A DNA stretch of 32,000 nt, from assembly GCF_003044035.1 (NCBI RefSeq), contig NZ_NVQC01000026.1, positions 30,001 through 62,000 on the forward strand, read 5' to 3'. The notes below the pieces were generated by a model, which saw nothing but the letters and a program-made list of their open reading frames with translations, was not told the origin of the DNA and did not search any database. The translations under genes were made by a program, and so were the position numbers. Position 1 is the first letter of the stretch, and every line of letters starts with the position of its first letter. Origin of the DNA: Candidatus Methylomirabilis limnetica. Its GTDB lineage: Bacteria; Methylomirabilota; Methylomirabilia; Methylomirabilales; Methylomirabilaceae. This document shows, piece after piece, positions 11,958-30,593 of the stretch.

Positions 11958-12650
11958 TTGCGGATTCAGAATTCAGAATTCAGAATTCAGAATCCAGAAT
12001 CCTACTACTGACTCCTGCCTCCTGCCTCCTGACTACTGCCTCCTGACTCCTGCCTCCTGACTCCTGCCTCCTGCCTCCTGACTACTGCCTCCTGCCTCCT
12101 GCCTCCTGACTACTGCCTCCTGACTCCTGCCTCCTGACTCCTGCCTCCTGCCTCCTGAATTTTGAATTCAGGAGTCAGAATTCCGGATGGTGCGCGAATA
12201 GGCTTCAAGCAGTTTGCTGACTTCTTCAAGCAACGGTATCAATTTGGAAACATCGCCGTAATCAAGGTCCATGGTGAGAATCAAATAGTATCGGGATTCT
12301 TCGAGGGAACCTTGTGCGATGTTGTAAAAGCGGAGTTTGTCTTCTGTTCCGCGTTTCTTGAATCCTTCCGCAATGTTTGCCGCAACGGAGACGGCCGCGC
12401 GTCGAAATTGAGACGACAGACCATAGGCCTCAGTTCGCGGGAATGTCCAGGACAAACGATAGGCCGCAAGTACAAACTGGTGGGCCTTTTGCCACACCAC
12501 CAAGTCCTCAAAGCGCGTCGCCGGCGACCTCATGCTGACTCCTCAATTTTGAATCCAGAATTCAGAATTCAGAATTCAGCCTCCTGACTCCTGACTCCTG
12601 CCTCCTGACTCCTGACTCCTGACTCCTGCCTCCTGACTCCTGACTCCTGA

Positions 12651-12680
<30 letters not shown>
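11958..12680 (-). mobile_element. Four-helix-bundle gene cassette flanked by compound heptamer arrays
   Basis: Same-sense arrays (gaattca)4-5 + (cctcctg/actcctg/actactg)n lie at 11958-12167 and 12534-12680 on either side of ORF 12168-12533. The block is bracketed by the 12-bp direct repeat. In-silico removal restores an ATGA kinase/regulator overlap. Confidence 0.7.
12168..12533 (-). CDS. Four-helix-bundle protein (23S rRNA intervening-sequence protein / Avd-like family)
   Basis: 121 aa. FEDLVVWQKAHQFVLAAYRLS, GLSSQFRRAAVSVAANIAEGF and AQGSLEESRYYLIL are the hallmark helices of this family. gaggag lies 6 nt upstream of the ATG. Confidence 0.85.
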   Translation of the reverse strand: MRSPATRFEDLVVWQKAHQFVLAAYRLSWTFPRTEAYGLSSQFRRAAVSVAANIAEGFKKRGTEDKLRFYNIAQGSLEESRYYLILTMDLDYGDVSKLIPLLEEVSKLLEAYSRTIRNSDS

Positions 12681-15985: not shown

Positions 15986-16454
15986 GGCTCAAGCCCCGCC
16001 CATGCCTGCTCGATAGGCATCTCCGGATTCGTAGTAATCAAGCCCGGAGTGGTCAAGTACCTCTTCCCCGACCAGGATGCGCAAGGTATTTGTCAGCTTT
16101 AGATGTTGGATGAACAGGTCATGCTCCGGCTGCAGGTCCACTCGGGCCATCGGAGACTTGAAGTAGAACGAGAGCCACTCCTGAATGCCCGATAATCCGG
16201 CCCGTTGGGCCAGGTCCAGAAACAGTGCCAGATCAAGGGCTACCGGCGCTGCCAGGATGGAGTCCCGACAGAGGAAGTTGATCTTGATCTGCATCGGCTG
16301 ACCGAGCCAACCGAAGATGTCGATGTTATCCCACCCCTCTTTAGCATCGCCCCGCGGCGGATAATATTCAATGCGGACCTTGTGGAACACCTTGCCATAC
16401 AGATCCGGATAGAGCTCCGGCTGCAGGATCGCGCCCAGCACCGAGCTCTTGCTC
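15986..16454. repeat. Right copy of the 469-bp direct repeat (3' end of intact ino1)
   Basis: Collinear with 8179-8647. Homology starts 3 nt beyond the stop codon and ends inside the gene. Confidence 0.9.
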
Positions 16455-17362
16455 ACCTCCTTGGTTCTGAACGATCCCTGATCATCCAGCACCTCGCCGT
16501 CCCGGTTCCCCAGGATGTTGGTGGAAAACCAGCCGGTCAGCCCCAGCATCTTGGCCTTCAGCCCTGGCGCGACCACGGTTTTCAGAAAGGTCTGGCCCGT
16601 CTTGAAGTCCTTCCCGGCGATCGGGACGTGCCTTTTGTGAGCGTACTCTACCAGCGCCGGGATATCCACAGCCAGGTTGGGTGAGCCATTCGCAAAGGGC
16701 ACGCCAGCCGAGATAGCGGCATAGGTATAGATCATGCACGGGGAGATTTCCGGGGCGTTCGCCTTGAGGCCAGCTTCAAAGGCCTCGATCGTCTCGTGCA
16801 CGGGGGACGGCTGCATGAAGACCTCTGTTGATCCACACCAGACCATCACGACACGCTGGACCCCCTCTCTCCGACGGAAGGCCTCGATATCTTCGATCAG
16901 CATATCCGCCAGGTGTTTCTTGGTCGGGCCGGCTTTAAGGTGCGGCCCCGACAACCTCCGCACATAGGCCTGCTCGAAGACCGCTGGCCACGGCCTGACG
17001 GATTCCAGTTGGTCTTTGACCTGGTCCAGCAACTCCCTGGACAGAACCCCGGCATGGCATGCGATCTGATAGGCGTTCTCAGGAAAGATGTCCCAGCCAC
17101 CGAAGACCAGATCGTTAAGATTAGTGAGGGGGACCACCTCCTTGATCAGGGCAAACCGAGGGTTGGTCCGCTTGCCCAGGCGCATCCGCTGCATCTGCGT
17201 GAGGGAACCGTGCGGTTGGGCAAGACCTTTGTTGATCAGGTGGACCCCTGCGATAAGGGTAGTGGCCACCGCACCCAACCCCGGGAGCAGCACCCCAAGC
17301 GTACCTGTGGCCGGCTTGATCGCCCTGATCAGTTCCGGATAGAGAGAACTCTTTTCGCTCAT
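15989..17362 (-). CDS. ino1: myo-Inositol-1-phosphate synthase (archaeal/bacterial type)
   Basis: The start at 17362 (MSEKSSLYPE..) overlaps the upstream stop by 4 nt. NAD-binding LLPGLGAVATTLIAG, LVFGGWDI, AGKDFKTGQT, WFSTNILGNRDGEVL, NFLCRDSILAAPVALDLALFLDL. The ORF-track extension to 17689 overlaps the upstream gene and is rejected. Confidence 0.85.
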   Translation of the reverse strand: MSEKSSLYPELIRAIKPATGTLGVLLPGLGAVATTLIAGVHLINKGLAQPHGSLTQMQRMRLGKRTNPRFALIKEVVPLTNLNDLVFGGWDIFPENAYQIACHAGVLSRELLDQVKDQLESVRPWPAVFEQAYVRRLSGPHLKAGPTKKHLADMLIEDIEAFRRREGVQRVVMVWCGSTEVFMQPSPVHETIEAFEAGLKANAPEISPCMIYTYAAISAGVPFANGSPNLAVDIPALVEYAHKRHVPIAGKDFKTGQTFLKTVVAPGLKAKMLGLTGWFSTNILGNRDGEVLDDQGSFRTKEVSKSSVLGAILQPELYPDLYGKVFHKVRIEYYPPRGDAKEGWDNIDIFGWLGQPMQIKINFLCRDSILAAPVALDLALFLDLAQRAGLSGIQEWLSFYFKSPMARVDLQPEHDLFIQHLKLTNTLRILVGEEVLDHSGLDYYESGDAYRAGMGGA

Positions 17363-18585
17363 GCCTTTACCCTTTCCCTGCGTGAGGTCCACAGCAATAT
17401 GAAGAAAAAGAGCGGCGCACCGAAGGCGGCCAGAACCAAAAACCAATGAGCCTTTCCTAGTGCCGATAGGATGACGACAAGGTAGATGAAATCCCGCTTT
17501 GCGAGGGCATCGGCAAGAGTGATAAGGCGGGATGGGGCCTCGGAGTTGGTGACGGAGGTAAAGAGCGGCCCCTCTGAGACCTTGTTCCGCATGGTCTGTC
17601 GGTAGACGAGACCGGCTGACAGGAGGGTGCCGATCACCGCGGAAACCGCTAAGACCAAGGGGGCAGGAGCCTTGATGGCCATCTGCCATCCCAAGCCGAT
17701 GCAGACAAAGACTACCGAGTGTACAACATTATCTCCCCAGAAGTCCAGGATGCCGCCCAGGCGAGACTCCAGATACTTGAGCCTGGCGATCTCCCCATCG
17801 CAGCCGTCCAGGATCGAATGCAAGAGGAACAGGAGCGCGCCGGTCAGTTGATACGCTGGTATGGACGAGAGAAAGAACAGGGCCCCCAATAGACCTATCG
17901 CCACGCTTACGGCTGTCATCTGGTTCGGGGTGATGTCCGTGCGTACGAGGCATCGGGTGACTGCCAGTGAAATCTTTCGCTCGAAATGCCTCGACATGAA
18001 GCCTTCCGTATCTTTGACCAGACCGCGCAGGAGCCACCGCTCGGCACTACGAAGATCCGCCCGGTTCGAGACCCGGACCCAGCCGGCACCGTCTATGAGA
18101 GCGCCCACTCTTTGGTAGGTCCGCTCCAGTCCGGAGAACACAGACAGATCATCGTCAGCACGCCCAATCATTGACAGAAGGACCTTGGGGTCAGCCGTCT
18201 CAACGGCAGCGATTCCGCTGGCTGGGACATGCATCGTCTCAGCGCGTAACGGCATCTCGGTGAGATGCGTGAGCAGCGATGGGCGCAGGAGAAGGTCAGA
18301 GGCGAGTACCAGGATACGGCTGGAGTGCGGGTGGCCCGTCTGAGTGCAACGCACAGGCAGGTCGGTGAGCTTCTCTGGAGGAAGCAGTACTGCCCGCGTT
18401 CCTGTCAAGAGCCTCGTGAGTCCTGGCCAACCGGTATCCACCACTAGAATCTCATGGCAGCCCGCTCGGGAGGCGACCATCACCATACGCCGAAGCAACG
18501 GGATCCCGGCTACAACGGTATCCGGGGAGATCTCTCCCGAGCCCTTCGTCATCATGATCAGGACCGTGGCTCCCTTCATGACCAT
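17359..18585 (-). CDS. IPCT/DIPPS-like fusion: nucleotidyltransferase-like N-domain plus CDP-alcohol phosphatidyltransferase membrane domain
   Basis: C-terminal half has the CDP-alcohol transferase motif DGCDGEIARLKYLESRLGGILDFWGDNVVH and about 6 hydrophobic helices. The N-half has an NTP-transferase-like fold signature with the G-x-G-T/S-R and PK motifs altered (MMTKGSGEISPDTVV). An alternative ATG lies at 18579. Confidence 0.75.
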   Translation of the reverse strand: MVMKGATVLIMMTKGSGEISPDTVVAGIPLLRRMVMVASRAGCHEILVVDTGWPGLTRLLTGTRAVLLPPEKLTDLPVRCTQTGHPHSSRILVLASDLLLRPSLLTHLTEMPLRAETMHVPASGIAAVETADPKVLLSMIGRADDDLSVFSGLERTYQRVGALIDGAGWVRVSNRADLRSAERWLLRGLVKDTEGFMSRHFERKISLAVTRCLVRTDITPNQMTAVSVAIGLLGALFFLSSIPAYQLTGALLFLLHSILDGCDGEIARLKYLESRLGGILDFWGDNVVHSVVFVCIGLGWQMAIKAPAPLVLAVSAVIGTLLSAGLVYRQTMRNKVSEGPLFTSVTNSEAPSRLITLADALAKRDFIYLVVILSALGKAHWFLVLAAFGAPLFFFILLWTSRRERVKA

Positions 18586-18598
18586 ACGTTCACACTGC

Positions 18599-18759
18599 GT
18601 AACTACTCAGGTAGATAGGCTGAAGGCTGAAGGCTTTTAGGGGAAAGTCATGCGTGATCATACAAAACTCCGAAAAGGTCTTGAATGGCTCGATTCGTGC
18701 CTTGCGAGATAATTTAGAACCTTCAGCCTTCAGCCTTCAGCCTAAACACCTTGTAGTTA
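18599..18759 (+). mobile_element. Family-1 miniature cassette, copy b, with 9-bp flanking direct repeat
   Basis: tcacactgc at 18590-18598 and 18760-18768 flanks the element. Termini gtaactactcagg ... ccttgtagtta are inverted. A 17-bp perfect stem forms between aggctgaaggctgaagg and ccttcagccttcagcct. The interior holds MRDHTKL.. and ..EKVLNGSIRALRDN remnants in different frames. Confidence 0.7.
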
Positions 18760-18774
18760 TCACACTGCAATGTA

Positions 18775-18818
18775 AGGGCGCCGCTTGCTGCGCCCTCTGG
18801 GCAGGGCAAGCCCTGCCC
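18775..18818 (-). terminator. Tandem GC-rich hairpins immediately 3' of the oxidoreductase stop codon (no U-tract)
   Basis: agggcgc-cgcttgct-gcgccct and gggcaggg-caag-ccctgccc. The stop codon is at 18819-18821. A similar gggcaggc/gcctgccc motif occurs at 31878-31968. Confidence 0.35.
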
Positions 18819-19901
18819 CTACACGGACAAATGCTGGCCCCCTCTGGCGTGCGATTCCTTGGCACGGTGCAGAAGTTGTACGCAGTGCGACGCCATGGCG
18901 AGGTTCTCTCCGCTCCGCTCAGTGTCCGAAATCTCCTGTAGAAACTCGTCCCTCACCTGGCAGAACCACTCCGGATGGTGGGAGCCCTGCGAGAGCGGCT
19001 GTTCGAATGTCCAGTCCTGCTCGTCCCCGTCGCTTTTTAGAATCAGGGTGCCATCCTCTATCCGGATGGCCCCACGGGTCCCCTCGATCACAGCGCTATT
19101 GCCACGTGAAGACGCGGCCCACGTCAGAAAGATATCGGCCACTGCCTCAGGAAAGTTCACCTGAACGGTCGCCGTATCCTCAACGGGCCATTCTGGATGC
19201 ACTCGCTTCTCGAGCGTGGCGGATATCGTCCTCGGGTCTTGACAAAGCCAGCGTAGGATGATGTACAGGGCGTGCCAACCGTGGTCAAGCAGGATTCCGC
19301 CACCCGCCATAGCCGGATCGAGCCGCCAGTTGCCGTGCGCTGCTCCACCTTGACTGGGCTCAGGACAGCCCTCGACGGAGCCTATGGTGAGCTCAGTCGA
19401 ACCGCTCAGGACAGGCCCAACCGAGATTGATGGTTCACGACGGAGTACCTGCCAGCTTATGTGCCGCACTGTCCCGATCTGCCCCTCCAGGATTAAGTCC
19501 GTTGCCTTTTTGATGATCGGCGCGTACAGCCAGTTATGGACGGTATGCAGGACTCGCCCGCTTTCTACTTGCGCACGCCTCACGAGTCGCAGCTCATCGG
19601 GAGAGAGCACGAGAGGCTTTTCACATAAGACATGGAGTCCCCGCTGGAGGGCCAGATGGGTGATAGATGCGTGGGTTCCGGGGGGCGTGCAGATATCGAT
19701 AAAATCGAGGGGCTCGGAGGCAAGCAGCGCCTCGACCTCAGTGTAGAGCCTCGCCTTTGGAAGACGCCCTCTGGCCTCGACGAGCCGCGGCTCGATGGCA
19801 TCAGCGGCGGCAACGATCTGGGCCTGCTCGCACCCCTCCCATCCGGGCAGATGCCCATTTACCGCTACATTTCCCAGGCCGATGATGGCGCCTCTCAACA
19901 T
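18819..19901 (-). CDS. Gfo/Idh/MocA-family NAD(P)-dependent oxidoreductase
   Basis: N-terminal Rossmann IIGLGNVAVNGHLPGW, EKPL motif (LCEKPLV), and C-terminal GGGILLDHGWHALY typical of the family. Confidence 0.75.
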   Translation of the reverse strand: MLRGAIIGLGNVAVNGHLPGWEGCEQAQIVAAADAIEPRLVEARGRLPKARLYTEVEALLASEPLDFIDICTPPGTHASITHLALQRGLHVLCEKPLVLSPDELRLVRRAQVESGRVLHTVHNWLYAPIIKKATDLILEGQIGTVRHISWQVLRREPSISVGPVLSGSTELTIGSVEGCPEPSQGGAAHGNWRLDPAMAGGGILLDHGWHALYIILRWLCQDPRTISATLEKRVHPEWPVEDTATVQVNFPEAVADIFLTWAASSRGNSAVIEGTRGAIRIEDGTLILKSDGDEQDWTFEQPLSQGSHHPEWFCQVRDEFLQEISDTERSGENLAMASHCVQLLHRAKESHARGGQHLSV

Positions 19902-19910
19902 CTCTTAAAG

Positions 19911-20048
19911 CAGGGTTTAGGGTACAGGGTTTAGGGTTTAGGGAAAAAGTCGATGATTTGCCTCATCCCTATACCCTTATACGCACACCCTATACCCTGT
20001 CCCCTTTACCCTCCACCCTATACCCTGTCTTCATCCCCTATACCCTGT
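19911..20048. repeat. cagggt...accctg array element E1 (gggttta arm / ccctata arm)
   Basis: (gggttta)n at 19913-19953 and (ccctata/ccctgtc)n at 19968-20048 are near-complementary. The interior gggaaaaagtcgatgatt resembles gggaaagtcatgcgtgat of family 1. The right end accctgtcttttc is identical to 22291-22303. It overlaps the last 6 codons of the aminotransferase ORF. Confidence 0.65.
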
Positions 20049-21356
20049 CTTTTCTAATTCGGCAAAGGCCTCATCGAGAATAGCCAGGCCTTCCAATGCC
20101 TGCGCCTCGGTGACGAGAAGCGGCGGATTGATCCGGATATTGTAGGAATAGCACATCGCGAGTAGTCCCCTTCGGAGGCAGGCCTGAAACAACCTTTGCG
20201 TCATTGGCTTCGGAAGCGGCTCCTTGGTCTGCCTATCCTTGACCAGTTCGATGCCCAGCAAGAGCCCTCTGCCCCGCACGTCGCCCACAAACGGGTATTT
20301 CTCCTTCATCACTTCCAGCCGTTTCAGCATGACCGCGCCGACACGCTTGGCATTCGCCACAAGCCGATCCTTAACGATTACCTCGAGGGTAGCCAGCCCC
20401 GCTGTTGCGGCTAGCGGATTGCCTCCATAGCTTGAGGAGCTTCCGCTCGGATTACCAAAGGGCTTGCTCGCCATCAGCTCTTGTGTCGAAATCACCCCGC
20501 TGACAGGGAACCCGCCTCCCATCCCCTTGCCGACCGTCATCACGTCCGGTACAATCGGCTCGTGATCGCACCCCCACATCGATCCGGTGCGGCCGAAGCC
20601 TGTGAGCATCTCGTCGGCGATCAGCAGGGCATCATTCTCCTTGGCAATCGTCTGTACCGCGCTCAAAAACCCCTGGGGCGGAATTACATTTCCGGCAGTC
20701 CCCTGGATCGGTTCCACGATGATCGCAGCGATCTCGCCCTGGGTCTGATACTGGATCACTTGGCGCAGGAAATCAGCGCAGGCAATACCGCAGTCGGGAT
20801 AACGGAGCTTCAAGGGACAGCGATAGCAGTTGGCGTACGGGGCGCTGTAGAGGCCAGGCATGAAGGGTCCCATCTGCTTCTTGAAGTCATCCCCCAACAG
20901 CCCAAGGACCCCGCCGGTCTTGCCGTGGAACCCGCCCCAGAACCCGACAAACTCAAACTTCTTAGTCGCCGACTTGGCGAGTCGGAAGGCAGCCTCGACC
21001 GCCTCCGCCCCGCTGGAATACATCTGGATCCGCTTGAGCCCTTTCGGCGTGACCGATGCTAGCAGCGCAAGAAACCGGGCCCGGTTCTCAGTGGTGAAGC
21101 TACCGAACGTCAGCCGCTCGATCTGGGCCTTCATCGCCTCGACGTAGTGCGGGTGCGTATACCCGATGCTCCCCACACCGATCCCAGCCATGAAATCGAG
21201 ATATCGATTGCCGTCCTCATCGATGAGGGTACACCCTTCCCCTCTCGCCATCGCCAGCCCGGAATACAGCGCAATCGACTGTAGACCCGGTGCCATATGG
21301 CGCGCCTCACGGGTGAAGATCGCCCTGGACCGCTTTCCAGGAATATTTCGCTTCAT
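20031..21356 (-). CDS. Class-III pyridoxal-phosphate-dependent aminotransferase
   Basis: The start ATG at 21356 overlaps the upstream TGA (ATGA). GGFHGKTGG; ADEMLTGFGRTGSMWGCDHEPIVPDVMTVGKGMGGGFP contains the PLP-lysine motif. The last residues (..EKTGYRG) are repeat-encoded. Confidence 0.8.
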   Translation of the reverse strand: MKRNIPGKRSRAIFTREARHMAPGLQSIALYSGLAMARGEGCTLIDEDGNRYLDFMAGIGVGSIGYTHPHYVEAMKAQIERLTFGSFTTENRARFLALLASVTPKGLKRIQMYSSGAEAVEAAFRLAKSATKKFEFVGFWGGFHGKTGGVLGLLGDDFKKQMGPFMPGLYSAPYANCYRCPLKLRYPDCGIACADFLRQVIQYQTQGEIAAIIVEPIQGTAGNVIPPQGFLSAVQTIAKENDALLIADEMLTGFGRTGSMWGCDHEPIVPDVMTVGKGMGGGFPVSGVISTQELMASKPFGNPSGSSSSYGGNPLAATAGLATLEVIVKDRLVANAKRVGAVMLKRLEVMKEKYPFVGDVRGRGLLLGIELVKDRQTKEPLPKPMTQRLFQACLRRGLLAMCYSYNIRINPPLLVTEAQALEGLAILDEAFAELEKTGYRG

Positions 21357-22237
21357 AGGAGCGCTCCTTGTCTGAGGCGACGTAGCAACCACGTAGCGAT
21401 CTGGGGAGCAGCTTCCTCGCGAAACAACGCAAACGAAGGCCACGCATTAATGTCGATGAGGAAGAACTCCCCGGTAGGCGTGATGATGGCATCACCTCCG
21501 TACACCTCAAGCCCGATGGTGGAAGCCGCCTGCTGGGTAACGGTCTGTAATGCCTCCTCCGAAAAGGGATACCGAGCCAGATCCTGATCCCGGTGATAGA
21601 ACCACTTAAACCATGTGTCCTTCCGATGGCCTGTAAGAGACTTTCCGATCCCGTAGAACTTGATCAAATCTCCCGGAATGTGCTGCTGCAGCACCACGTG
21701 GGAGATTCCCCTGCCGTAGAGCGCTGCCAGAACCCTCCGGAGATCCTCCAAAGATGATACGAGTTCAACATCCCCGGATTGGGTATTGTGGACATCGGCT
21801 CGCTTGACCCAGATCGGGAAAGAGCCTGTCGGAAGCTGTGGCGAAGGATGATCAGGGTTGAACGAGTTGCTCGATATGACCTGGCTCCTCGGGATCGGAA
21901 TCGCTGAGGCGGCGAGAAGTGGAATCATTCGGTCCCGATAGGTGTTCAGCACGGCCTGAAGAGGATTGACATGTGGGATAGCTTGCATCTCAATCGGCTC
22001 AAGAGAACGTAGGGTTTCGACCCGCTCGCACATTAAAAATACAAGCGACGGCAAAGGGTCTGGCCGAAGCCCAGTCGAAGGATCGGCTACTCCGAGCTCC
22101 TCCGGCGTCTTGAGGTGTACCTGGTAGCCGGCCGCTTCGACATGTTTGGCCACGAGCCTCAGGATCTCAGCATCATCGAATTCCCGACCCGGCGAGTGCT
22201 GCTGTTCACGATAAATCCCCCAAAGGTACGGCATCAT
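21353..22237 (-). CDS. ATP-grasp fold protein (ITPK1/RimK-like terminal motif)
   Basis: FPIWVKRADVHNTQSGDVELV, VVLQQHIPGDLIKFYGIG and YGGDAIITPTGEFFLIDINAWPSF follow the ATP-grasp pattern. The last motif resembles, from memory, the ..DIINNQTGQHAVIDINAFPGY end of inositol-trisphosphate 5/6-kinases. ggagg RBS upstream. Confidence 0.6.
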   Translation of the reverse strand: MMPYLWGIYREQQHSPGREFDDAEILRLVAKHVEAAGYQVHLKTPEELGVADPSTGLRPDPLPSLVFLMCERVETLRSLEPIEMQAIPHVNPLQAVLNTYRDRMIPLLAASAIPIPRSQVISSNSFNPDHPSPQLPTGSFPIWVKRADVHNTQSGDVELVSSLEDLRRVLAALYGRGISHVVLQQHIPGDLIKFYGIGKSLTGHRKDTWFKWFYHRDQDLARYPFSEEALQTVTQQAASTIGLEVYGGDAIITPTGEFFLIDINAWPSFALFREEAAPQIATWLLRRLRQGALL

Positions 22238-22255
22238 GAGGTACTGCCTCCGCTT

Positions 22256-23005
22256 TTAAAACAGGGTAGAGGGTAGAGGGTGTAGGGTAGACCCTGTCTT
22301 TTCATGTTCTTGTACAAGAGTTTCGGCCAGGTGAAGATCCTCGGCGCGATCGACGTCGATGACCTGGTCAATGACCACCCCATAGACCGGGATCCCGCGA
22401 TCAACCATCCAGATCAGGAAGTCACGAAGCCGATCCAGTGTAGACGGGTGAGGGGCTTCGGCAAAGATTGAGCCGGGCACAAGGTAGAGTCCGGCGGTTA
22501 CGACGTCACCCGAGTCACCCCCTATTCCCGTTACGCGCCCGGAAGGATCGAGGGTCACCCAGAGAGGCTTCTCGTCGGCCACGAATGGCGTCACGGCCAA
22601 AACGACGGAAGCCTGACTGCAGCGCCGGGCCTGATCGACGAATCGGCGGAAGGCCGGTTCCGGACAGATCCAGTCCACGGTAGACATGAGGATGGGGCCT
22701 GGACCGGATCGCCCACCAACCTCCCAGAAGCTTTCGTACGATGAGCGTGTAGTTTTCACGATGCATTGGACGTCGAGATTCGGGAAACGCTCCTGAATGA
22801 ATGTGGCGCACTCCCGGTCGTCCTCATTGAAGATGATCCGTAGCTGCGTGATACCGACCTTCACAAAATTGCTCATCACCCGCTCGATCAACGGGATACC
22901 TGCGACCGGCACCATCGGCTTCGGCATCCTCAAGCCGTCCCGTTTCAACCGGGAACCTTCCCCGGCCGCAATGATGCCCCCTATCAGGGTTGTGGGCGCG
23001 TTCAC
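22256..23005 (-). CDS. Sugar/alcohol-phosphate nucleotidyltransferase (NTP_transferase family)
   Basis: Intact signature IIAAGEGSRLKRDGLRMPKPMVPVAGIPLIERV. The start overlaps the HAD gene stop by 4 nt. The C-terminal TGSTLHPLPSTL tail is encoded by the (agggtag) array. Confidence 0.75.
   Translation of the reverse strand: MNAPTTLIGGIIAAGEGSRLKRDGLRMPKPMVPVAGIPLIERVMSNFVKVGITQLRIIFNEDDRECATFIQERFPNLDVQCIVKTTRSSYESFWEVGGRSGPGPILMSTVDWICPEPAFRRFVDQARRCSQASVVLAVTPFVADEKPLWVTLDPSGRVTGIGGDSGDVVTAGLYLVPGSIFAEAPHPSTLDRLRDFLIWMVDRGIPVYGVVIDQVIDVDRAEDLHLAETLVQEHEKTGSTLHPLPSTLF
22262..22297. repeat. cagggt...accctg array element E2 (36 bp, in frame inside the 3' end of the nucleotidyltransferase ORF)
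   Basis: The sequence is cagggta gagggta gagggtg tagggta gaccctgt. Its flanks ttttaaaa / cttttc are near-identical to those of E1. Confidence 0.6.
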
Positions 23006-23712
23006 AGGAGTATCTCCCGAAGATCTGCTAGCGACCTGATCATAGGGTCACCCGGGCAACAGGGTACGGCAGCACCGGAGTGGTCTGATACCAGCCAGAT
23101 ATGGGGCATCCCGAGACCTTTCGCCCCTTCCATGTCTCGAGGCAATGAGTCGCCGACAAATACCGCCTCTCGTGGATCGAGTTGTAACTGCATCAGCGCG
23201 GCCTGAAAGATCCTAGGGTCCGGCTTGGTGAACCCGACGCGCGCCGAATCAACCATTACACTCATGAGCGGGGTCAGCCCACTCTCAAGACAGACGCGTT
23301 CGAGATTGCCATAGAAGTTCGAGATGATGCCGAGTCGAAATCGTACTGACAGCTCCCGCAGGATCGTCAGGTTAGAACGGATCTTATCCAGTGAGTCCTG
23401 AAGAAACCTGTCGCACAGACGCGACGCTACCCTCGCATCGGCCATATTCAACGCCTCCAGTACGCCCGTGACCTGGAACAGGAGGCTCTCTCGAAACGAG
23501 TAGTCCGAGAATCCCCGCGCCACCAGAGCATCATCGCCAACATAGTAGGCTTGATCGTATCGATCCCGCTCTATCTCCATATGCTCGGCGAGATAGAACG
23601 GATAGAATCTATCTTTCCAGGCGACTCCGTCGGCATCAAGGGTTCCCCCGAAATCGAAGAGAATAGCTTTTGGCAACTCTTTTACCATCCGGCTTCGCGT
23701 CATCGCGTTCAT
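23002..23712 (-). CDS. HAD-superfamily hydrolase (probable phosphatase)
   Basis: Motif I AILFDFGGTLD, motif II LGIISNF, motif IV FVGDSLPRDMEGA. The start is uncertain (ATGs at 23712, 23703, 23688) because the first codons lie in the 8-mer array. Confidence 0.7.
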   Translation of the reverse strand: MNAMTRSRMVKELPKAILFDFGGTLDADGVAWKDRFYPFYLAEHMEIERDRYDQAYYVGDDALVARGFSDYSFRESLLFQVTGVLEALNMADARVASRLCDRFLQDSLDKIRSNLTILRELSVRFRLGIISNFYGNLERVCLESGLTPLMSVMVDSARVGFTKPDPRIFQAALMQLQLDPREAVFVGDSLPRDMEGAKGLGMPHIWLVSDHSGAAVPCCPGDPMIRSLADLREILL

Positions 23713-23796
23713 TGCGTCATTGCGTTCATTGCGTCATTGCGTCGTACGCTATAGACGCTATAGACGCTATAGACGCAATAGCCGCTATAGACGTAC
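23700..23796. repeat. Paired arrays (cattgcgt)4-5 and (ctatagacg)4-5
   Basis: The tandem units are directly visible. The two arrays are partly reverse-complementary (gcgtc / gacgc cores). They fill the spacer between the PmbA-like stop and the HAD start. Confidence 0.75.
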
Positions 23797-25350
23797 TCAG
23801 AGCTGCTCCATGAAGGAGGCGATCTCGTCGAGCTTGACGCCTCGAACGGCGATCTCGGGCGTATAGATGACCTCGTCTGCCGCCCAGACCAAGGTTTCCC
23901 TTACATCCTTACCGATCGCGATGATATTAGAGAGAATCGTGTGGATATTATCGTTGATCCGTACCGTATTGGGTTTCAGCGGCGTCGTGATCCGTCCGTC
24001 CTTAATGATGTACGAGTCACCAACCACTGTGCAGGTGAAGTCGCCGGCCCGTAACCCGTTGATAGGATACGTATACCAGATCCGCCCGATGAGTAGGCCG
24101 TTCTTTACGGTGGCGATGAGCTCATCGAGGCTTTGGTCTCCACCCTGTACGACAGCATTGGTTGAGGCGACTGCGGTTTGGACACCGAACTGTCGACCGC
24201 CACCAGCCCAGGATCGGAAACCGTTCCGCGGCACGATTGCGCTGCCGTGCTGGTTCGGGTCCACCCCCAGCTTCTCTGTACCCCTGGGATCTCTTACTAT
24301 ACGCTGCTGTTCGTAATAGTTGGTGAGCAGCCCTACCAATCTGCCCCGCTGGATCAGGCGTGTTTTCCCGGTCGGTAGTCCTTCGCAGGTGATCCCCTTG
24401 CTGCCCATCAACCCACGCTTATTGCCATGGTCGTAGAGGGTGAGATGCTTCGATGCGACTCGCTTCCCGAGCCGTCCCATGAACGGAGAGCTATCGCTGT
24501 AGAAGGTGCTGAGGCTGAGAGAAGGCAGGATCAGATTGTTCAGGAGGTCGGCCACAGGCTGACGCCCGAAGATTACCGTATACTCCCCACCCTTGATCCG
24601 CTCTCCGCCAATCGCCGCGAGAGCGTTGTGTGCGGCTTCTACACCGGCGCCGTCAGTAAACTGGTCCAGGCGGGTGCCGGCGGAGCAGCCGCTGCCCTTG
24701 GAGGCCTTGGCCTCGACCATTGCGGTGATGAAGGCCATGATCAGGGTCGATTCGTCGGTCTGGACCTCGGGCATGGCGGTCGAGGCGATGGCGATCCGCT
24801 CCTGCTGGATGGTCACATCGCCACCTACAATGAGGCCTAATGCACTGATCTGGCCCTTACCGCCCGCCAGTTCGGCAAGTTGAGGAGAAGCCGCAAAGGT
24901 CTTTAGTCCCCCCTGCAAAACCTTCCAGCCGACCTCAACCAGATCCTCGTCCCGAATCTTCATCAGTTTAGGGTCGTGGTAGCGGCGGAGCCTTCGCCGC
25001 TCACCCGTGGCTCTCGGCAGCGACGAGAATTCGGGATCGACGACGGCGCCGCGCCTGGCCTTCCCGAGGGCTCTTTTTACCCCATCGAGGCTTAGATCGC
25101 TCGGTTCGCTGCCAAACCCGATCGTAACACCGGCCTCTGTCTTGAAAACCGCCGCAATTCCAAGGCCGTACGATTCACTTGATTTCGGCTCTTCGACGCC
25201 ATTGCATGGGATGTGCGAGGTATAGTTCAGCCGGGCTAAGAGGTTACCGTTACTTGACGCAAAGACCTCGGCCTCGGCCACCTGCTCGGCTGACCCTAGA
25301 TACTCCAAGGCTTGCGTCACAGCCTTAGCAAGTTCAGCGGTTGAGATCAT
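23797..25350 (-). CDS. PmbA/TldE-family protein (non-catalytic partner of TldD-type metalloprotease)
   Basis: 517 aa with no HExxxH motif. The C-terminal ...TNAVVQGGDQSLDELIATVKNGLLIG...GDFTCTVVGDSYIIKDGRITTPLKPNTVRINDN pattern is typical of the PmbA_TldD family. Confidence 0.7.
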   Translation of the reverse strand: MISTAELAKAVTQALEYLGSAEQVAEAEVFASSNGNLLARLNYTSHIPCNGVEEPKSSESYGLGIAAVFKTEAGVTIGFGSEPSDLSLDGVKRALGKARRGAVVDPEFSSLPRATGERRRLRRYHDPKLMKIRDEDLVEVGWKVLQGGLKTFAASPQLAELAGGKGQISALGLIVGGDVTIQQERIAIASTAMPEVQTDESTLIMAFITAMVEAKASKGSGCSAGTRLDQFTDGAGVEAAHNALAAIGGERIKGGEYTVIFGRQPVADLLNNLILPSLSLSTFYSDSSPFMGRLGKRVASKHLTLYDHGNKRGLMGSKGITCEGLPTGKTRLIQRGRLVGLLTNYYEQQRIVRDPRGTEKLGVDPNQHGSAIVPRNGFRSWAGGGRQFGVQTAVASTNAVVQGGDQSLDELIATVKNGLLIGRIWYTYPINGLRAGDFTCTVVGDSYIIKDGRITTPLKPNTVRINDNIHTILSNIIAIGKDVRETLVWAADEVIYTPEIAVRGVKLDEIASFMEQL

Positions 25351-25373
25351 CGGTAAGTCTCCTGGAACACAAC

Positions 25374-25443
25374 AAGGGTTTAGCGGTTTAGCGGTTAGAA
25401 CCCACCGGCCATGCTTTTCCTCTACCCTATACCCTCTACCCTT
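25374..25443. repeat. aagggt...accctt array element E3 (ggtttagc arm / ctaccct arm)
   Basis: (ggtttagc)2 and (ctaccct/ataccct)3 flank ..ccatgcttttcc.. (reverse complement ggaaaagcatgg, like the family-1 interior). It abuts the TldD-like stop codon at 25444. Confidence 0.6.
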
Positions 25444-27039
25444 TCAAGCTCCGGTGAGGATGGCGCGGCTGCGCATGGTGGGGCCCCCATTACCGAGCCG
25501 CTTGGTCTGCATCGGCTGGCCCTTGCCGCAATTGGGGATCGGGTAGAGACGGAAGTCGTTCCCTACCGCATCCACCTTCATCAAGTAGTCCTTCGTATCG
25601 GCCATGATCCCGCCGTTACAGAACAACTCTCCGATCTGCCCATGCTTGATCTCATAGACCTTCATCGCGGAGATTCGGAAGTTTTCGCGCGATTCAGCGA
25701 TCGAGGGAGTCCGGTGCCCTACGAGGTAGTAGCCATGGGGGATCTCCCTGATAATCTCATGGGGGTCCCGTTCGCCAGGACTGAACACCGTATTTGACAT
25801 CCTGATCAAAGGAACCATCGAGGCGTCAGTAGCCGTGTACGACCCGTTCGGCGGGATACCCAGGATGGCAGCGGTCTGGCGGCTGTTCATGAAGCCGGTG
25901 AAGATCCCGTGGTCGATGTGCATAACCTTTCTCCCTGATGTACCTTCGTGATCATACTTATAATGGCCGTACCCGGGAAGAGAGGGGTCGGAGAAGGCTG
26001 AGACGAGGGGAGAAGCGATCGGTTTGCCCATCTGATGTTCCTGGAGGTCCCGGAAAAGCCAGCTTCGGCCGGCGTAAGAAGCCTCCATCTTCAACGCGCG
26101 ATCCAGCTCGGCCGGGTGGCCGACAATCTCGTGGACCGTCAGGGTGTTGTAGTGGGGGTCGGTGACAACCACCATCTCGCGGTCAGTGGCCTTGAGCGGC
26201 CTGGCATTGCACAGGCTCACCGCGTCACCCGTGAGGTTCATACAAAAGGTCCGGAAATCCGGAAATTGGATGAACTCCTCTTGCACGCCTTTGGTTAACA
26301 CCTCCCACCCGCGCTGGTGGCCCATGTAATCGTACAGCTCCTGCGTGCCGGATTTGCCGTCGGTCACGATGAAACACGTGCCCTGAGTCAGAGCAAAGCA
26401 CTGGTCGATGTTGGCACCCTCAGAGCTACACAGCAACTCCCGGCTCAACAGGGTAAAGGCCGAGATGAACGTATACTTGACATGAGGGTCGAGCGCAAGC
26501 GTGCTTTTGGAGATCTCGGTCGTCATGGCGACGATCTCGTCTAAGGGGACGGAGAGGGGATCGACCTCAAAGCGCGCCGGAACGATATCCTGATGAATCT
26601 CGATGGGCGCGAGGGTAGTGCTGATCAGGGTATCCCCCAGAGGACTGAACGCCTCCCGTGTTGCGCTCTTGCGCTCGGCGTTGGCCAGTGCCCGATGATG
26701 CGCATGACGGAGCCCGCCCTTCACGACCTGCGCTAGTCGATCTATGTCGGCTATTCCGAGCGATTGCCCGAAATAGCCCGGCGCGACCATCCCGTTACCG
26801 GACAGAGCGCGGATACCGACCGCAAAGCCATAGTCCCTGGTGCTATGTTTACTCCCACCATTCTCTGCTGCGGCCGATTGTCCTTCATCGACCTGTACGC
26901 GAATGTCCACATAGCGGCAGCCGCGAAGGGTCTTCCTGTAGCGGGTGGCGAGATCGAAGATCATCGGCTTGATCTGATCGATGATCTGTACTGTCATTGG
27001 TTGTGTTGACATCGTCTTTGCTTCCCCTATCCCCAGCAT
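25444..27039 (-). CDS. tldD: TldD-family zinc metalloprotease
   Basis: HEIVGHPAELDR is the HExxGH zinc motif. The C-terminal ...GYYLVGHRTPSIAESRENFRISAMKVYEIKHGQIGEL... follows the TldD pattern. An alternative start at 27012 (MSTQP..) has aggggaag upstream. Confidence 0.75.
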   Translation of the reverse strand: MLGIGEAKTMSTQPMTVQIIDQIKPMIFDLATRYRKTLRGCRYVDIRVQVDEGQSAAAENGGSKHSTRDYGFAVGIRALSGNGMVAPGYFGQSLGIADIDRLAQVVKGGLRHAHHRALANAERKSATREAFSPLGDTLISTTLAPIEIHQDIVPARFEVDPLSVPLDEIVAMTTEISKSTLALDPHVKYTFISAFTLLSRELLCSSEGANIDQCFALTQGTCFIVTDGKSGTQELYDYMGHQRGWEVLTKGVQEEFIQFPDFRTFCMNLTGDAVSLCNARPLKATDREMVVVTDPHYNTLTVHEIVGHPAELDRALKMEASYAGRSWLFRDLQEHQMGKPIASPLVSAFSDPSLPGYGHYKYDHEGTSGRKVMHIDHGIFTGFMNSRQTAAILGIPPNGSYTATDASMVPLIRMSNTVFSPGERDPHEIIREIPHGYYLVGHRTPSIAESRENFRISAMKVYEIKHGQIGELFCNGGIMADTKDYLMKVDAVGNDFRLYPIPNCGKGQPMQTKRLGNGGPTMRSRAILTGA

Positions 27040-30464: not shown

Positions 30465-30593
30465 GTAACTACTCAAGGTGTTTAGGCTGAAGGCTGAAGG
30501 TTCTGAATTATCTCGCAAGGCACGAATCAAGACCGTTCTCGGTTTCTACCCCTAAAAGCCTTCAGCCTTCAGCCTACCCACCTGAGTACTTAC
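30465..30593 (-). mobile_element. Family-1 miniature cassette, copy c (further deleted interior)
   Basis: Termini are gtaactactcaagg ... cctgagtacttac. The ggctgaaggctgaagg / ccttcagccttcagcc arms are present. It retains the attcgtgccttgcgagataatt segment (IRALRDN) in reverse complement but lacks the MRD..TKL part. Confidence 0.65.

Follow-up and report, generated by a model that had tools for sequence, protein, structure and literature searches.

Seven minus-strand genes from a Candidatus Methylomirabilis (NC10) genome occupy the middle of the window, by which we mean the whole 32,000-nucleotide stretch of DNA analyzed here. All seven open reading frames claimed in the initial annotation were found at their coordinates, and profile and structure annotation upheld the domain identities assigned to the proteins. 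From upstream to downstream, the genes and spacers are as follows.

23002..23712, minus strand: HAD-IA family hydrolase, 236 aa (PF00702, E 1e-17; PF13419; PF13242)
22256..23005, minus strand: stand-alone, IPCT-like NTP-transferase with intact catalytic residues, 249 aa (PF12804, PF00483)
21353..22237, minus strand: ATP-grasp enzyme of an undescribed family, 294 aa (AlphaFold and Foldseek fold)
20031..21356, minus strand: class-III (omega-type) PLP aminotransferase, 441 aa (PF00202, E 2e-103)
19902..20030, minus strand: spacer of 129 bp, a palindromic GGGTATA/CCCTAAA heptamer-array element
18819..19901, minus strand: Gfo/Idh/MocA NAD(P)-dependent oxidoreductase, 360 aa (PF01408, PF22725, PF02894)
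18586..18818, minus strand: spacer of 233 bp, a palindromic element with inverted (GGCTGAA)n arms
17359..18585, minus strand: membrane CDP-alcohol phosphotransferase of the DIPPS/AF2299 type, 408 (or 406) aa (PF01066, E 3e-10)
15989..17362, minus strand: myo-inositol-1-phosphate (inositol-3-phosphate) synthase, MIPS, 457 aa (PF07994, E 1e-95; PF01658, E 7e-30)

Overlaps of 4 nt had been described throughout two gene blocks. They are present between the HAD and NTP-transferase genes, the ATP-grasp and aminotransferase genes, and the phosphotransferase and MIPS genes, but the NTP-transferase and ATP-grasp genes are separated by an 18-nt gap. Mechanically called reading frames extend further upstream for the aminotransferase (to 21443) and MIPS (to 17689); the starts called on the identical public contig are the ATG codons at 21356 and 17362.

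We surveyed 80 loci from Methylomirabilota/NC10, Rokubacteria, Nitrospirae, Acidobacteriota, Verrucomicrobiae and Elusimicrobia, and counted gene co-occurrence among the 56 that had enough flanking DNA. The HAD, NTP-transferase, ATP-grasp, class-III aminotransferase, Gfo/Idh/MocA and CDP-alcohol phosphotransferase genes occurred together in 55 of them, in the same order in nearly all loci and in at least six phyla. Such a combination is far from chance, and the idea that the genes are syntenic nowhere else decisively fails. The MIPS gene directly follows the phosphotransferase gene in 21 of the 56 loci and is not adjacent to the cluster in Rokubacteria. The seven genes are thus a tightly conserved operon, and this synteny bears out the earlier proposal of one functional unit centered on inositol phosphate. 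Gene fusions tie several members together more closely. The NTP-transferase and ATP-grasp enzyme form a single in-frame reading frame in two loci (L046 and L039), with different linkers, and are also fused in seven cluster representatives; one further representative carries a HAD-NTP-transferase-ATP-grasp fusion (P0150) and another an ATP-grasp-phosphotransferase fusion (P0129). A phosphotransferase-HAD fusion has been reported in Prevotella veroralis (Heaver et al., PMC9246714). Synteny and fusions together show a four-protein core, consisting of the HAD enzyme, the IPCT-like cytidylyltransferase, the ATP-grasp enzyme and the CDP-alcohol phosphotransferase.

It had been stated that this enzyme combination fits no nameable pathway. 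However, its core corresponds to the putative alternative inositol-lipid cluster of Bacteroidetes, for which an NTP-transferase, a CDP-alcohol phosphotransferase, a HAD enzyme, MIPS and an LPG-synthase-like neighbor have been described (Heaver et al., Nat Microbiol 2022, PMC9246714). The authors of that study labeled the pathway unconfirmed, and an ATP-grasp gene is nowhere mentioned in it. Phosphoinositol dihydroceramide was detected by HPLC-MS in two species with this cluster only, B. vulgatus and P. veroralis; the B. vulgatus lipid is reported as plain PI-DHC, and no acylated head group is described. Gut loci carrying a distant branch of the ATP-grasp family, including that of P. vulgatus (L094), have the order NTP-transferase, ATP-grasp, CDP-alcohol phosphotransferase, LPG_synthase_TM, HAD and then MIPS. 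The P. vulgatus ATP-grasp gene lies between BVU_RS13095 and BVU_RS13105. Pairwise homology to the P. vulgatus cluster was found for all four core proteins: over the full length for the NTP-transferase (31% identity, E 3e-36), the ATP-grasp enzyme (29%, E 8e-43) and the HAD enzyme (26%, E 2e-30), and in the catalytic transmembrane segment only, about 107 residues, for the phosphotransferase (27%). MIPS matches its gut-locus counterparts with 460-600 bits. The core in the window is therefore, protein by protein, homologous to the putative inositol-lipid module of gut Bacteroides. The two clusters also share the proposed Kennedy-type logic via CDP-inositol, as well as the LPG-synthase-TM neighbor, which is common among the relatives of the window cluster. 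At least 51 of the retrieved loci, and 21 of the 41 long gut loci, carry an adjacent gene for an MprF-flippase-like protein (PF03706) on the same strand; it is the commonest extra neighbor and accompanies the module in most lineages, whereas the window contains no such gene. The window cluster differs further in that the P. vulgatus-type phosphotransferase lacks the dead nucleotidyltransferase-fold N-domain, and in having the Gfo/Idh/MocA and aminotransferase genes, which occur in no gut locus. What is new here is this two-gene extension of the inositol-lipid core, which includes the overlooked ATP-grasp member.

The only full-length NCBIfam match of the NTP-transferase was to the IPCT half of NF041135 (residues 11-231, E 2.7e-7), and the segment GGIIAAGEGSRL...PKP is conserved across its orthologues. 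We predict that it is a CTP:(amino)inositol-phosphate cytidylyltransferase; against this, IPCT-like enzymes can use other phospho-substrates, as CpgD does with phosphoglycerate (PMC12275187). The phosphotransferase had been called an IPCT/DIPPS-like fusion. Its AlphaFold model (pLDDT 80) indeed has a nucleotidyltransferase fold, with the A. fulgidus IPCT-DIPPS structure 4mnd as the best Foldseek match (450 columns) and MurU, RmlA and IPCT 2xme among the matches of the N-domain. However, this domain reaches NTP_transf_3 only at E 0.003, and the catalytic GxGxR...PKP residues are missing in every orthologue. Compared with the IPCT/DIPPS route (A. fulgidus AF0263, PDB 4mnd; NF041135), the window protein thus retains the same nucleotidyltransferase fold and six-helix CDP-alcohol phosphotransferase, with the motif D-G-x2-D-G-x2-A-R...G...D...D intact, and MIPS is the substrate source in both; but the catalytic Arg and Lys are gone from its N-domain, and a separate gene has to provide the cytidylyltransferase activity. 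The window also has additional ATP-grasp, dehydrogenase and aminotransferase genes. Against NF041135 itself the phosphotransferase matches only the DIPPS half (E 1e-30; 107 bits, with a cut-off of 580), and its PDB sequence matches are AF2299 (E 5e-22) and 4mnd (E 3e-20). Another possible parallel is the CDP-DAG-dependent route of PIP synthase and PIP phosphatase (mycobacteria; B. thetaiotaomicron BT_1523/BT_1525), which uses the same transferase superfamily, likewise makes an inositol lipid from inositol 3-phosphate and includes a phosphatase step. PIPS structures form the second tier of fold matches, but the window enzyme reaches only E 1e-13 to 1e-15 with the PIPS and AIPS models of NCBIfam, far below its score with the DIPPS model (1e-30). 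In addition, a dedicated IPCT-like enzyme is present, which suggests a CDP-cyclitol donor rather than CDP-DAG.

Two kinds of product had been put forward, a lipid head group and a soluble compatible solute. In the latter case, CDP-inositol would be joined to a second (amino)cyclitol or alcohol phosphate, giving a phosphodiester phosphate that the HAD enzyme would trim. The closest characterized relatives of the phosphotransferase in sequence and fold, DIPPS and AF2299, use soluble substrates, which counts against a lipid; some orthologues are labeled IPCT/DIPPS in the JGI annotation, a separate IPCT-like enzyme, MIPS and a HAD enzyme make up the parts list of the DIP pathway, and the window lacks a flippase-like gene. 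Nevertheless, we consider a DIP-like solute unlikely, since in B. vulgatus and P. veroralis the homologous core is accompanied by an inositol lipid, the flippase-like membrane gene is so common a neighbor, and a DIP scheme leaves the ATP-grasp enzyme without a role. The IPCT/DIPPS route belongs to hyperthermophiles, and the carriers of the window-type cluster, bacterial phyla not known as thermophiles, are presumably mesophilic soil, groundwater and gut bacteria; this disfavors a hyperthermophile-type solute in particular. The HAD enzyme also fits poorly with such a scheme, in which it had been cast as a DIPP-type terminal phosphatase. Its motif I reads D-F-G-G-T-L-D, and D-[FYL]-G-G-T is found in 141 of 141 orthologues, so that the Asp+2 general acid/base of usual phosphatases is missing in all of them. 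A simple phosphatase role is therefore doubtful; the enzyme may act as a phosphatase (IMPase-like or terminal) or in another phosphoryl-transfer or hydrolase step. Thus, the homology to the Bacteroidetes cluster and the flippase-like neighbor in relatives favor the lipid head group.

For the ATP-grasp protein, a Pfam and NCBIfam profile search returned no family above threshold, and the fold was assigned from an AlphaFold model (pLDDT 86) backed by Foldseek. The top structural matches are ArgX/LysX, Ddl and RimK, with ITPK1 (7tn7) ranked 34th (TM 0.65/0.71); given that all of these score about 1e-14 to 1e-13, fold search cannot separate ligases from kinases. Its relatives comprise 940 clusters at 50% identity (E<=1e-3), and the signature motifs are R-E-x2-H-S-P-G-R-E-x-D-D, W-V-K-R-x-D-V-H, G-D-L-I-K-F-Y-G and D-I-N-A-W-P-S-F. 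ATP-grasp ligases include amide-forming and ester-forming enzymes (Ddl and VanA, respectively). Within the same pathway, the enzyme might be a ligase that adds a carboxylate such as an amino acid to the head group, giving an inosamine amide or an inositol ester. This would accord with the ligases that lead the Foldseek matches and with the whole-protein profile, in which RimK-type ligases score better than ITPK (E 7e-4); it would also resemble the aminoacylation of phosphatidylglycerol by MprF, a flippase-like domain gene (PF03706) being next door in relatives. On the other hand, the ATP-grasp gene is kept unchanged in loci that lack the aminotransferase (all 41 long gut loci, and the environmental variants L012 and L035), its recurrent fusion partner is the soluble cytidylyltransferase and not an enzyme of late steps, and plain PI-DHC is the lipid reported from B. 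vulgatus (PMC9246714). Moreover, the catalytic C-terminal segment has ITPK1 and ITPK4 as its only natural PDB matches, albeit weak (E 0.056), and Ins134_P3_kin as its best weak Pfam family. We therefore regard a ligase role as rather improbable, and the amide decoration of a new amine suggested in the initial annotation as unlikely. The repeated cytidylyltransferase fusions, the independence from the aminotransferase and the ITPK-like catalytic segment make it more likely that the enzyme is an ITPK-like kinase feeding the cytidylyltransferase. It shares with ITPK1-type inositol-phosphate kinases (PF05770) the ATP-grasp fold, a context of inositol metabolism and local identity near the Mg-binding segment (GLEVYGGDAIIT.PTGEFFLIDINAWPSF versus GVSLFGIDIIINNQTGQHAVIDINAFPGY). 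However, the ITPK similarity is sub-threshold (E 0.002-0.06), as is the protein for every family; a weak PF05770 signal appears in five of 24 members, and no ITPK counterpart could be demonstrated for the N-terminal motif HSPGRExDD. The few conserved basic residues make a polyphosphorylated substrate unlikely.

The Gfo/Idh/MocA protein contains the EKP and D-x3-H motifs and has sugar and inositol dehydrogenases as PDB relatives, although it scores only 61 bits against the IolG equivalog TIGR04380 (cut-off 355). It is predicted to oxidize a ring hydroxyl to a ketone, and the aminotransferase is predicted to aminate a keto intermediate. The latter falls under every NCBIfam equivalog cut-off; its best PDB match is 7vno (E 3e-83), which lacks the subfamily-specific four-Cys motif CYRCPLxLxYPxCGxAC that is conserved across phyla. 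The aminotransferase gene always adjoins the Gfo/Idh/MocA gene, and the pair was found neither in any of the 41 long gut loci nor in L012 and L035. The two genes are an optional module added to the core. The alcohol-to-ketone-to-amine logic resembles the cyclitol steps of streptomycin, rhizopine and hygromycin A type pathways, but the window enzyme belongs to class III, whereas the known inosose aminotransferases are, to our knowledge, DegT-type. The validamycin and acarbose gene sets include a cyclitol kinase, an NDP-transferase, an aminotransferase and a HAD enzyme, with coupled kinase and nucleotidyltransferase steps. We thus also considered an NDP-cyclitol pathway whose product would be either an aminocyclitol natural product for secretion or a glycoconjugate unit of the cell surface. 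In addition to these shared enzyme classes, the slot upstream of the cluster holds a GT4 glycosyltransferase in three Elusimicrobia loci. However, the membrane CDP-alcohol phosphotransferase, to which the product would be handed, is an invariant member, and the locus has no cyclase, pseudoglycosyltransferase, resistance, export or tailoring gene. In our judgement, the same locus form across at least six phyla also makes a housekeeping envelope trait likelier than a sporadic secondary-metabolite cluster, and so we think such a product very improbable.

Taken together, there is about an even chance, in our estimation, that the operon builds a modified inositol-phosphate head group and, through a CDP-activated form, joins it to an acceptor that is most likely a membrane lipid. 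MIPS, the usual neighbor of the core, would supply inositol 3-phosphate, and the HAD enzyme or a housekeeping IMPase would dephosphorylate it. The Gfo/Idh/MocA enzyme would then oxidize a ring hydroxyl to give an inosose, from which the class-III aminotransferase would form an inosamine; these two enzymes could act on a free, phosphorylated or lipid-bound form. The ATP-grasp enzyme, as an ITPK-like kinase, would re-phosphorylate the cyclitol, the cytidylyltransferase would produce a CDP-(amino)cyclitol, and the membrane phosphotransferase would transfer the phospho-(amino)cyclitol to a lipid alcohol by Kennedy-type logic. Relatives that encode the flippase-like protein would use it for outward transport of the lipid. 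In gut Bacteroidetes, where the dehydrogenase and aminotransferase are absent, the product would be an ordinary inositol lipid. As judged from the chemistry expected of these enzymes, an aminated (inosamine) head group is the most likely product of the oxidation and transamination branch, and an aminated phosphodiester made in this way, as first suggested, is still the most economical reading. A search of the accessible literature turned up no report of an inosamine phospholipid.

The two spacers had been noted as repeat-filled, and the repeats are present. Both are palindromic heptamer-array elements whose RNA is predicted to fold into long hairpins, at -58.7 kcal/mol (z -6.2) for 19902..20030 and -103.8 kcal/mol (z -8.2) for 18586..18818, the latter with 27-nt arms of 89% complementarity. 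In several relatives, among them L005, L006, L019 and L020, little or no spacer separates the aminotransferase and Gfo/Idh/MocA genes, and in L008 and L005 the Gfo/Idh/MocA and phosphotransferase genes overlap. Within the window, a second copy of the 18586..18818 element type lies at about 30470-30590.

Profile searches upheld the domain calls that the initial annotation had made for seven minus-strand open reading frames (ORFs), which are laid out as follows:

23712-23002, minus: HAD-IA hydrolase (HAD), by profile search
23005-22256, minus: nucleotidyltransferase (NTP-transferase), by profile search
22237-21353, minus: ATP-grasp protein of 294 aa, without a Pfam family, recognised from the fold of its AlphaFold model
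21356-20031, minus: class-III aminotransferase (PF00202, E 2e-103)
19901-18819, minus: Gfo/Idh/MocA oxidoreductase, by profile search
18585-17359, minus: CDP-alcohol phosphotransferase with an N-terminal extension, by profile search
17362-15989, minus: myo-inositol-1-phosphate synthase (MIPS; NAD_binding_5, E 1e-95, and Inos-1-P_synth, E 7e-30)

The 4-nt overlaps that had been described inside two blocks of this arrangement are present between the HAD and NTP-transferase genes, the ATP-grasp and aminotransferase genes, and the phosphotransferase and MIPS genes, but the NTP-transferase and ATP-grasp genes lie 18 nt apart. A 70.5-kb ENA contig carries an identical ATP-grasp gene whose neighbours are arranged in the same way. 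Judged by its protein relatives, the organism belongs to Candidatus Methylomirabilis / NC10.

We scanned one genome per species with an alignment of ATP-grasp homologues and obtained 291 loci. The best 80 of the 291 were fetched, their ORFs were searched with the proteins of the window, and neighbouring genes were assessed by targeted phmmer searches using annotated neighbours. According to their record titles, these 80 loci belong to Methylomirabilota, Rokubacteria, Nitrospirae/Nitrospira, Acidobacteriota, Verrucomicrobiae, Elusimicrobia and a few others. The HAD, NTP-transferase, ATP-grasp, aminotransferase, Gfo/Idh/MocA and phosphotransferase genes follow a common order in nearly every fetched locus. 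The initial annotation had named a lack of synteny in relatives as evidence against its inositol-centred cluster; since all six genes are kept in 55 of the 56 loci with enough flanking DNA, the cluster is in fact syntenic. Given this synteny, we also reject the idea that the aminotransferase, ATP-grasp and NTP-transferase genes belong to an unrelated pathway and lie here by chance. MIPS lies directly downstream in 21 of the 55 six-gene loci. The one exception among the 56 is a Rokubacteria variant (L035), which has neither the dehydrogenase and aminotransferase nor MIPS. On one short contig (L012) the dehydrogenase and aminotransferase are cleanly absent, while the HAD, NTP-transferase, ATP-grasp, phosphotransferase and MIPS genes are retained. 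Two tandem PmbA/TldD-like genes (23797-27039) stand immediately upstream of the cassette; because such genes were found beside the cassette only in the loci closest to the window (L007, L008, L055 and others), we do not count them as part of it. A histidine kinase gene downstream was likewise rejected, as it is found there only on the window's own contig.

Gene fusions tie the core proteins (HAD, NTP-transferase, ATP-grasp and phosphotransferase) together. The NTP-transferase and ATP-grasp form a single ORF in one Rokubacteria locus (L046) and one Acidobacteriota locus (L039), with different linkers. An exhaustive HMMER search for ATP-grasp homologues gave 940 cluster representatives at E<=1e-3, and among the top 150 of these we counted seven NTP-transferase-ATP-grasp fusions, one HAD-NTP-transferase-ATP-grasp fusion (P0150) and one ATP-grasp-phosphotransferase fusion (P0129). 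A phosphotransferase-HAD fusion has been reported from Prevotella veroralis by Heaver et al. (PMC9246714).

We also scanned metagenomes with an alignment of distant ATP-grasp relatives (approximately 30% identity), which returned 80 loci, mostly from the human gut. These loci carry, in order, genes for the NTP-transferase, ATP-grasp, CDP-alcohol phosphotransferase, LPG_synthase_TM (PF03706) and HAD, with MIPS a few genes further on, and no dehydrogenase or aminotransferase gene was found in them. One of them, L094, is from Phocaeicola (Bacteroides) vulgatus. Heaver et al. described this gene set in 2022 as a putative alternative inositol-lipid cluster and named as its members BVU_RS13095 (NTP-transferase), BVU_RS13105 (phosphotransferase) and BVU_RS13115 (HAD) (PMC9246714). 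Their reason for proposing it was that phosphoinositol dihydroceramide is made by B. vulgatus and P. veroralis, both of which lack the B. thetaiotaomicron genes (PMC9246714). An ATP-grasp gene is mentioned nowhere in that report (PMC9246714); judging by how the locus tags are numbered and how the genes of L094 are arranged, it is the ATP-grasp homologue that lies between BVU_RS13095 and BVU_RS13105.

The core proteins of the window are homologous to their B. vulgatus representatives. Compared with L094, identity is 29% over the full length for the ATP-grasp (E 8e-43), 31% for the NTP-transferase (E 3e-36), 26% for the HAD (E 2e-30) and 27% for the phosphotransferase, where the alignment spans the first 107 membrane-domain residues (E 3e-11). 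The window also resembles the gut cluster in grouping MIPS, NTP-transferase, CDP-alcohol phosphotransferase and HAD within 15989-23712. On this protein-level comparison, the four-protein core plus MIPS is homologous to a cluster whose carriers make an inositol lipid; the core is a known module, itself experimentally unconfirmed. The window differs in lacking an LPG-synthase-TM gene (BT_1521-like, PF03706), which the gut loci have, and in adding the dehydrogenase/aminotransferase pair, which is modular and occurs in the environmental branch only. In P. vulgatus, an MFS transporter and a PfkB-family sugar kinase are encoded between HAD and MIPS (L094 11529-13677), and a PfkB-like region lies just upstream of HAD in the Rokubacteria variant (L035 7675-8500); these genes may represent a branch for inositol uptake and salvage.

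No PF03706 homologue was found anywhere in the 32-kb window, whereas a gene of this MprF-flippase-like family adjoins the cassette on the same strand in at least 51 fetched genome or contig loci, including the NC10 loci L008 and L055, and is homologous to its P. vulgatus counterpart. It lies upstream of HAD in NC10, Nitrospirae and Acidobacteriota, and after a CopD-like membrane protein in Rokubacteria. In the two NC10 relatives it is situated between the TldD-like gene and HAD (L008 7485-8540; L055 7464-8546), where the window has only 84 bp (23713-23796) filled with 9-mer (ACGCTATAG)n repeats. Other neighbours vary with lineage. In three Elusimicrobia loci (L019 7445-8560, L020 and L044) a GT4 glycosyltransferase gene, absent from this upstream slot in the window, stands directly upstream of HAD instead of the PF03706 gene. 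The CopD-like protein of Rokubacteria (approximately 525 aa; L005 14390-15964) is encoded directly after the phosphotransferase. In one Methylomirabilales genome (L006 1-7290) the cassette adjoins hopanoid and envelope genes, namely squalene-hopene cyclase, an MMPL transporter, MlaC and PagL.

The phosphotransferase keeps an intact Dx2DGx2AR...G...D...D motif, DGCDGEIARLKYLESRLGGILDFWGDN, which is invariant across orthologues. Its closest sequences are AF2299 and the A. fulgidus IPCT-DIPPS, and its best fold match is 4mnd (450 aligned columns). A structure search assigned a nucleotidyltransferase fold to the N-terminal domain, matching MurU, RmlA, GlmU and IPCT (2xme), and Pfam NTP_transf_3 reached only E 0.003. 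Neither the window protein nor any of the 18 aligned orthologues has the Arg/Lys cytidylyltransferase signature (GxGxR[LM]...PKP) in this domain, part of which is missing in Acidobacteriota. The corresponding catalytic residues of T. maritima IMPCT are R16, K26 and D112 (PMC12275187). Like bifunctional IPCT/DIPPS (NF041135), the window protein has the CDP-alcohol phosphotransferase motif and a six-helix membrane domain; it differs in its dead N-terminal domain and in its score of 107 bits, confined to the DIPPS half and below the equivalog cut-off of 580 bits. For these reasons the label "IPCT/DIPPS-like fusion" of the initial annotation is right as a statement of resemblance and wrong as one of membership. 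Given this resemblance, the cluster could possibly make a soluble solute like di-myo-inositol phosphate, the second-ranked of the rival explanations we considered; the homologous gut cluster, for its part, belongs to producers of an inositol lipid.

The stand-alone NTP-transferase has kept the Arg/Lys signature, and the IPCT/DIPPS model, through its IPCT half, is the only one in NCBIfam to match it over the full length. The precedent of CpgD indicates that IPCT-like enzymes can accept other phospho-substrates (PMC12275187). We consider a CDP-ceramide or CDP-lipid route, with the ATP-grasp protein as a lipid kinase, less likely in view of the similarity of the NTP-transferase to IPCT and of carriers that are not known to produce sphingolipids.

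The AlphaFold model of the ATP-grasp protein (pLDDT 86) shows the three domains of an ATP-grasp fold, including the central-strand Lys and the Mg site of the D/E-x-N type; K145, D249, D262 and N264 are invariant. It gave 596 PDB matches at E<=1e-3, and all of the 50 matches listed are ATP-grasp enzymes. Neither Pfam nor NCBIfam assigned the protein to a family. In the Foldseek search of this model against the PDB, ArgX, Ddl, RimK and ITPK1 fell within one order of magnitude, so that ligases and kinases were not separated. The whole-protein profile is nearer to RimK (E 7e-4), and a head-group ligase acting in the same pathway is a possible role, which we rank first among the rivals. For the catalytic C-terminal segment, ITPK1 and ITPK4 were the sole natural PDB proteins matched, at a weak E of 0.056. 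Ins134_P3_kin (PF05770) is the commonest weak Pfam match of the family (5 of 24 members, E 0.002-0.04); the window protein scores 14 bits and P0215, a cluster representative, 17.6 bits, and the window protein differs from the family PF05770 in staying under its gathering threshold of 23 bits. The fusions and the independence of the ATP-grasp gene from the aminotransferase favour a kinase rather than a ligase. A precedent is the Campylobacter phosphoramidate pathway, in which a cytidylyltransferase acts after a kinase of the ATP-grasp type.

The aminotransferase is of the omega type, with the PLP-Lys motif (DEMLTGFGRTG and TVGKG are present), and falls under every NCBIfam equivalog cut-off. A four-Cys motif, CYRCPLKLRYPDCGIAC (residues approximately 180-200), is conserved across phyla within the cluster, has no counterpart in 7vno, the best homologue in the PDB, and may bind Zn or an Fe-S cluster. 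No characterised cyclitol-acting template was among the matches returned for this enzyme. The Gfo/Idh/MocA protein has the catalytic motifs of its family, and differs from IolG (TIGR04380) in its score of 61 bits, confined to the Rossmann half and well under the equivalog cut-off of 355; it is therefore assigned to Gfo/Idh/MocA generally. It contains an insertion of approximately 30 residues at about 158-190 (…STELTIGSVEGCPEPSQGGAAHGN…), which is missing from several orthologues of other phyla, whose alignments break at 158 and 190. We infer that this dehydrogenase and the aminotransferase would together turn a ring hydroxyl into an amine. An aminocyclitol natural product, third among the rivals, is possible as the outcome.

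We propose that the ATP-grasp enzyme would provide the phospho-substrate for the cytidylyltransferase, a role that fits both the fusions and the independence from the aminotransferase, and that the phosphotransferase would hand a phospho-(amino)cyclitol to lipid. The cyclitol might be dephosphorylated, modified and rephosphorylated, which would explain the need for a kinase despite the phosphate delivered by MIPS. The HAD protein weakens the dephosphorylation step of this scheme. Its motif I (residues 19-25) reads D-F-G-G-T-L-D and, unlike the DxDx[TV] of HAD phosphatases, lacks Asp+2; in 141 of 141 orthologues, gut Bacteroidetes included, the motif is D-[FYL]-G-G-T, with this general acid/base replaced by Gly. 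Motifs II to IV are present in the window protein.

The full reading is one that we put forward tentatively and consider rather unlikely: an unrecognised, PE-like zwitterionic phospho-inosamine phospholipid might be made in six phyla (NC10, Rokubacteria, Nitrospirae, Acidobacteriota, Verrucomicrobiota and Elusimicrobia) by a Kennedy-type, ITPK-like route, the kinase of which would also catalyse an essential, so far unreported step in the inositol-lipid synthesis of abundant human gut Bacteroidetes. A bacterial ITPK-like ATP-grasp kinase would act on the free cyclitol, the cytidylyltransferase would yield a CDP-aminocyclitol, and the DIPPS-derived enzyme would move the aminocyclitol to lipid. 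Literature searches, including Methylomirabilis with inositol and CDP-inositol since 2021, returned no description of the extended cluster, of the ATP-grasp family or of an inosamine phospholipid, and none of the titles or abstracts returned concerned an inositol or inosamine lipid in Methylomirabilis. If the phospho-inosamine lipid exists, then several phyla that dominate in soil and groundwater but are poorly cultured have in common a dedicated pathway for an aminated inositol lipid, a target that no lipidomic survey was told to seek, and the nitrite-dependent methane oxidiser Methylomirabilis gains a new candidate biomarker and envelope trait. The extended cluster itself is widespread, makes a clear testable prediction and is of direct relevance to the pathway published for gut Bacteroidetes. 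In the model of the "alternative" pathway of Phocaeicola and Prevotella, a conserved fourth enzyme, the ATP-grasp, is omitted and unaccounted for; nor does that model account for a HAD member that lacks the residue on which phosphatases normally rely for catalysis. Each of these two points can be tested directly.

The spacers between the gene blocks do contain repeats, as had been noted initially, and these proved to be palindromic heptamer-array elements. The 129-bp spacer between the aminotransferase and Gfo/Idh/MocA genes (element at approximately 19902-20034) holds a palindromic GGGTATA/CCCTAAA array (hairpin -58.7 kcal/mol, z -6.2). The 233-bp spacer between the Gfo/Idh/MocA and phosphotransferase genes (element at approximately 18590-18815) holds a palindrome with inverted (GGCTGAA)n arms (hairpin -103.8 kcal/mol, z -8.2), of which a second copy lies at approximately 30470-30590. 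Heptamer arrays occupy other intergenic regions of the window too. Because the gene pairs flanking the two spacers abut or overlap in several relatives, we regard the elements as lineage-specific insertions within an operon of older date; their presence is no argument against co-transcription of the cassette. Scanning the window for Rfam families, tRNAs, promoters and terminators was uninformative. Many intergenic regions (11964-12157, 12551-12678, 23697-23793 and 25377-25442) are filled by long tandem arrays with units of 7 to 9 nt, among them up to 21 copies of CTGCCTC, and two of the arrays bracket a small ORF that is annotated on the identical contig as a 23S_rRNA_IVP four-helix-bundle protein.
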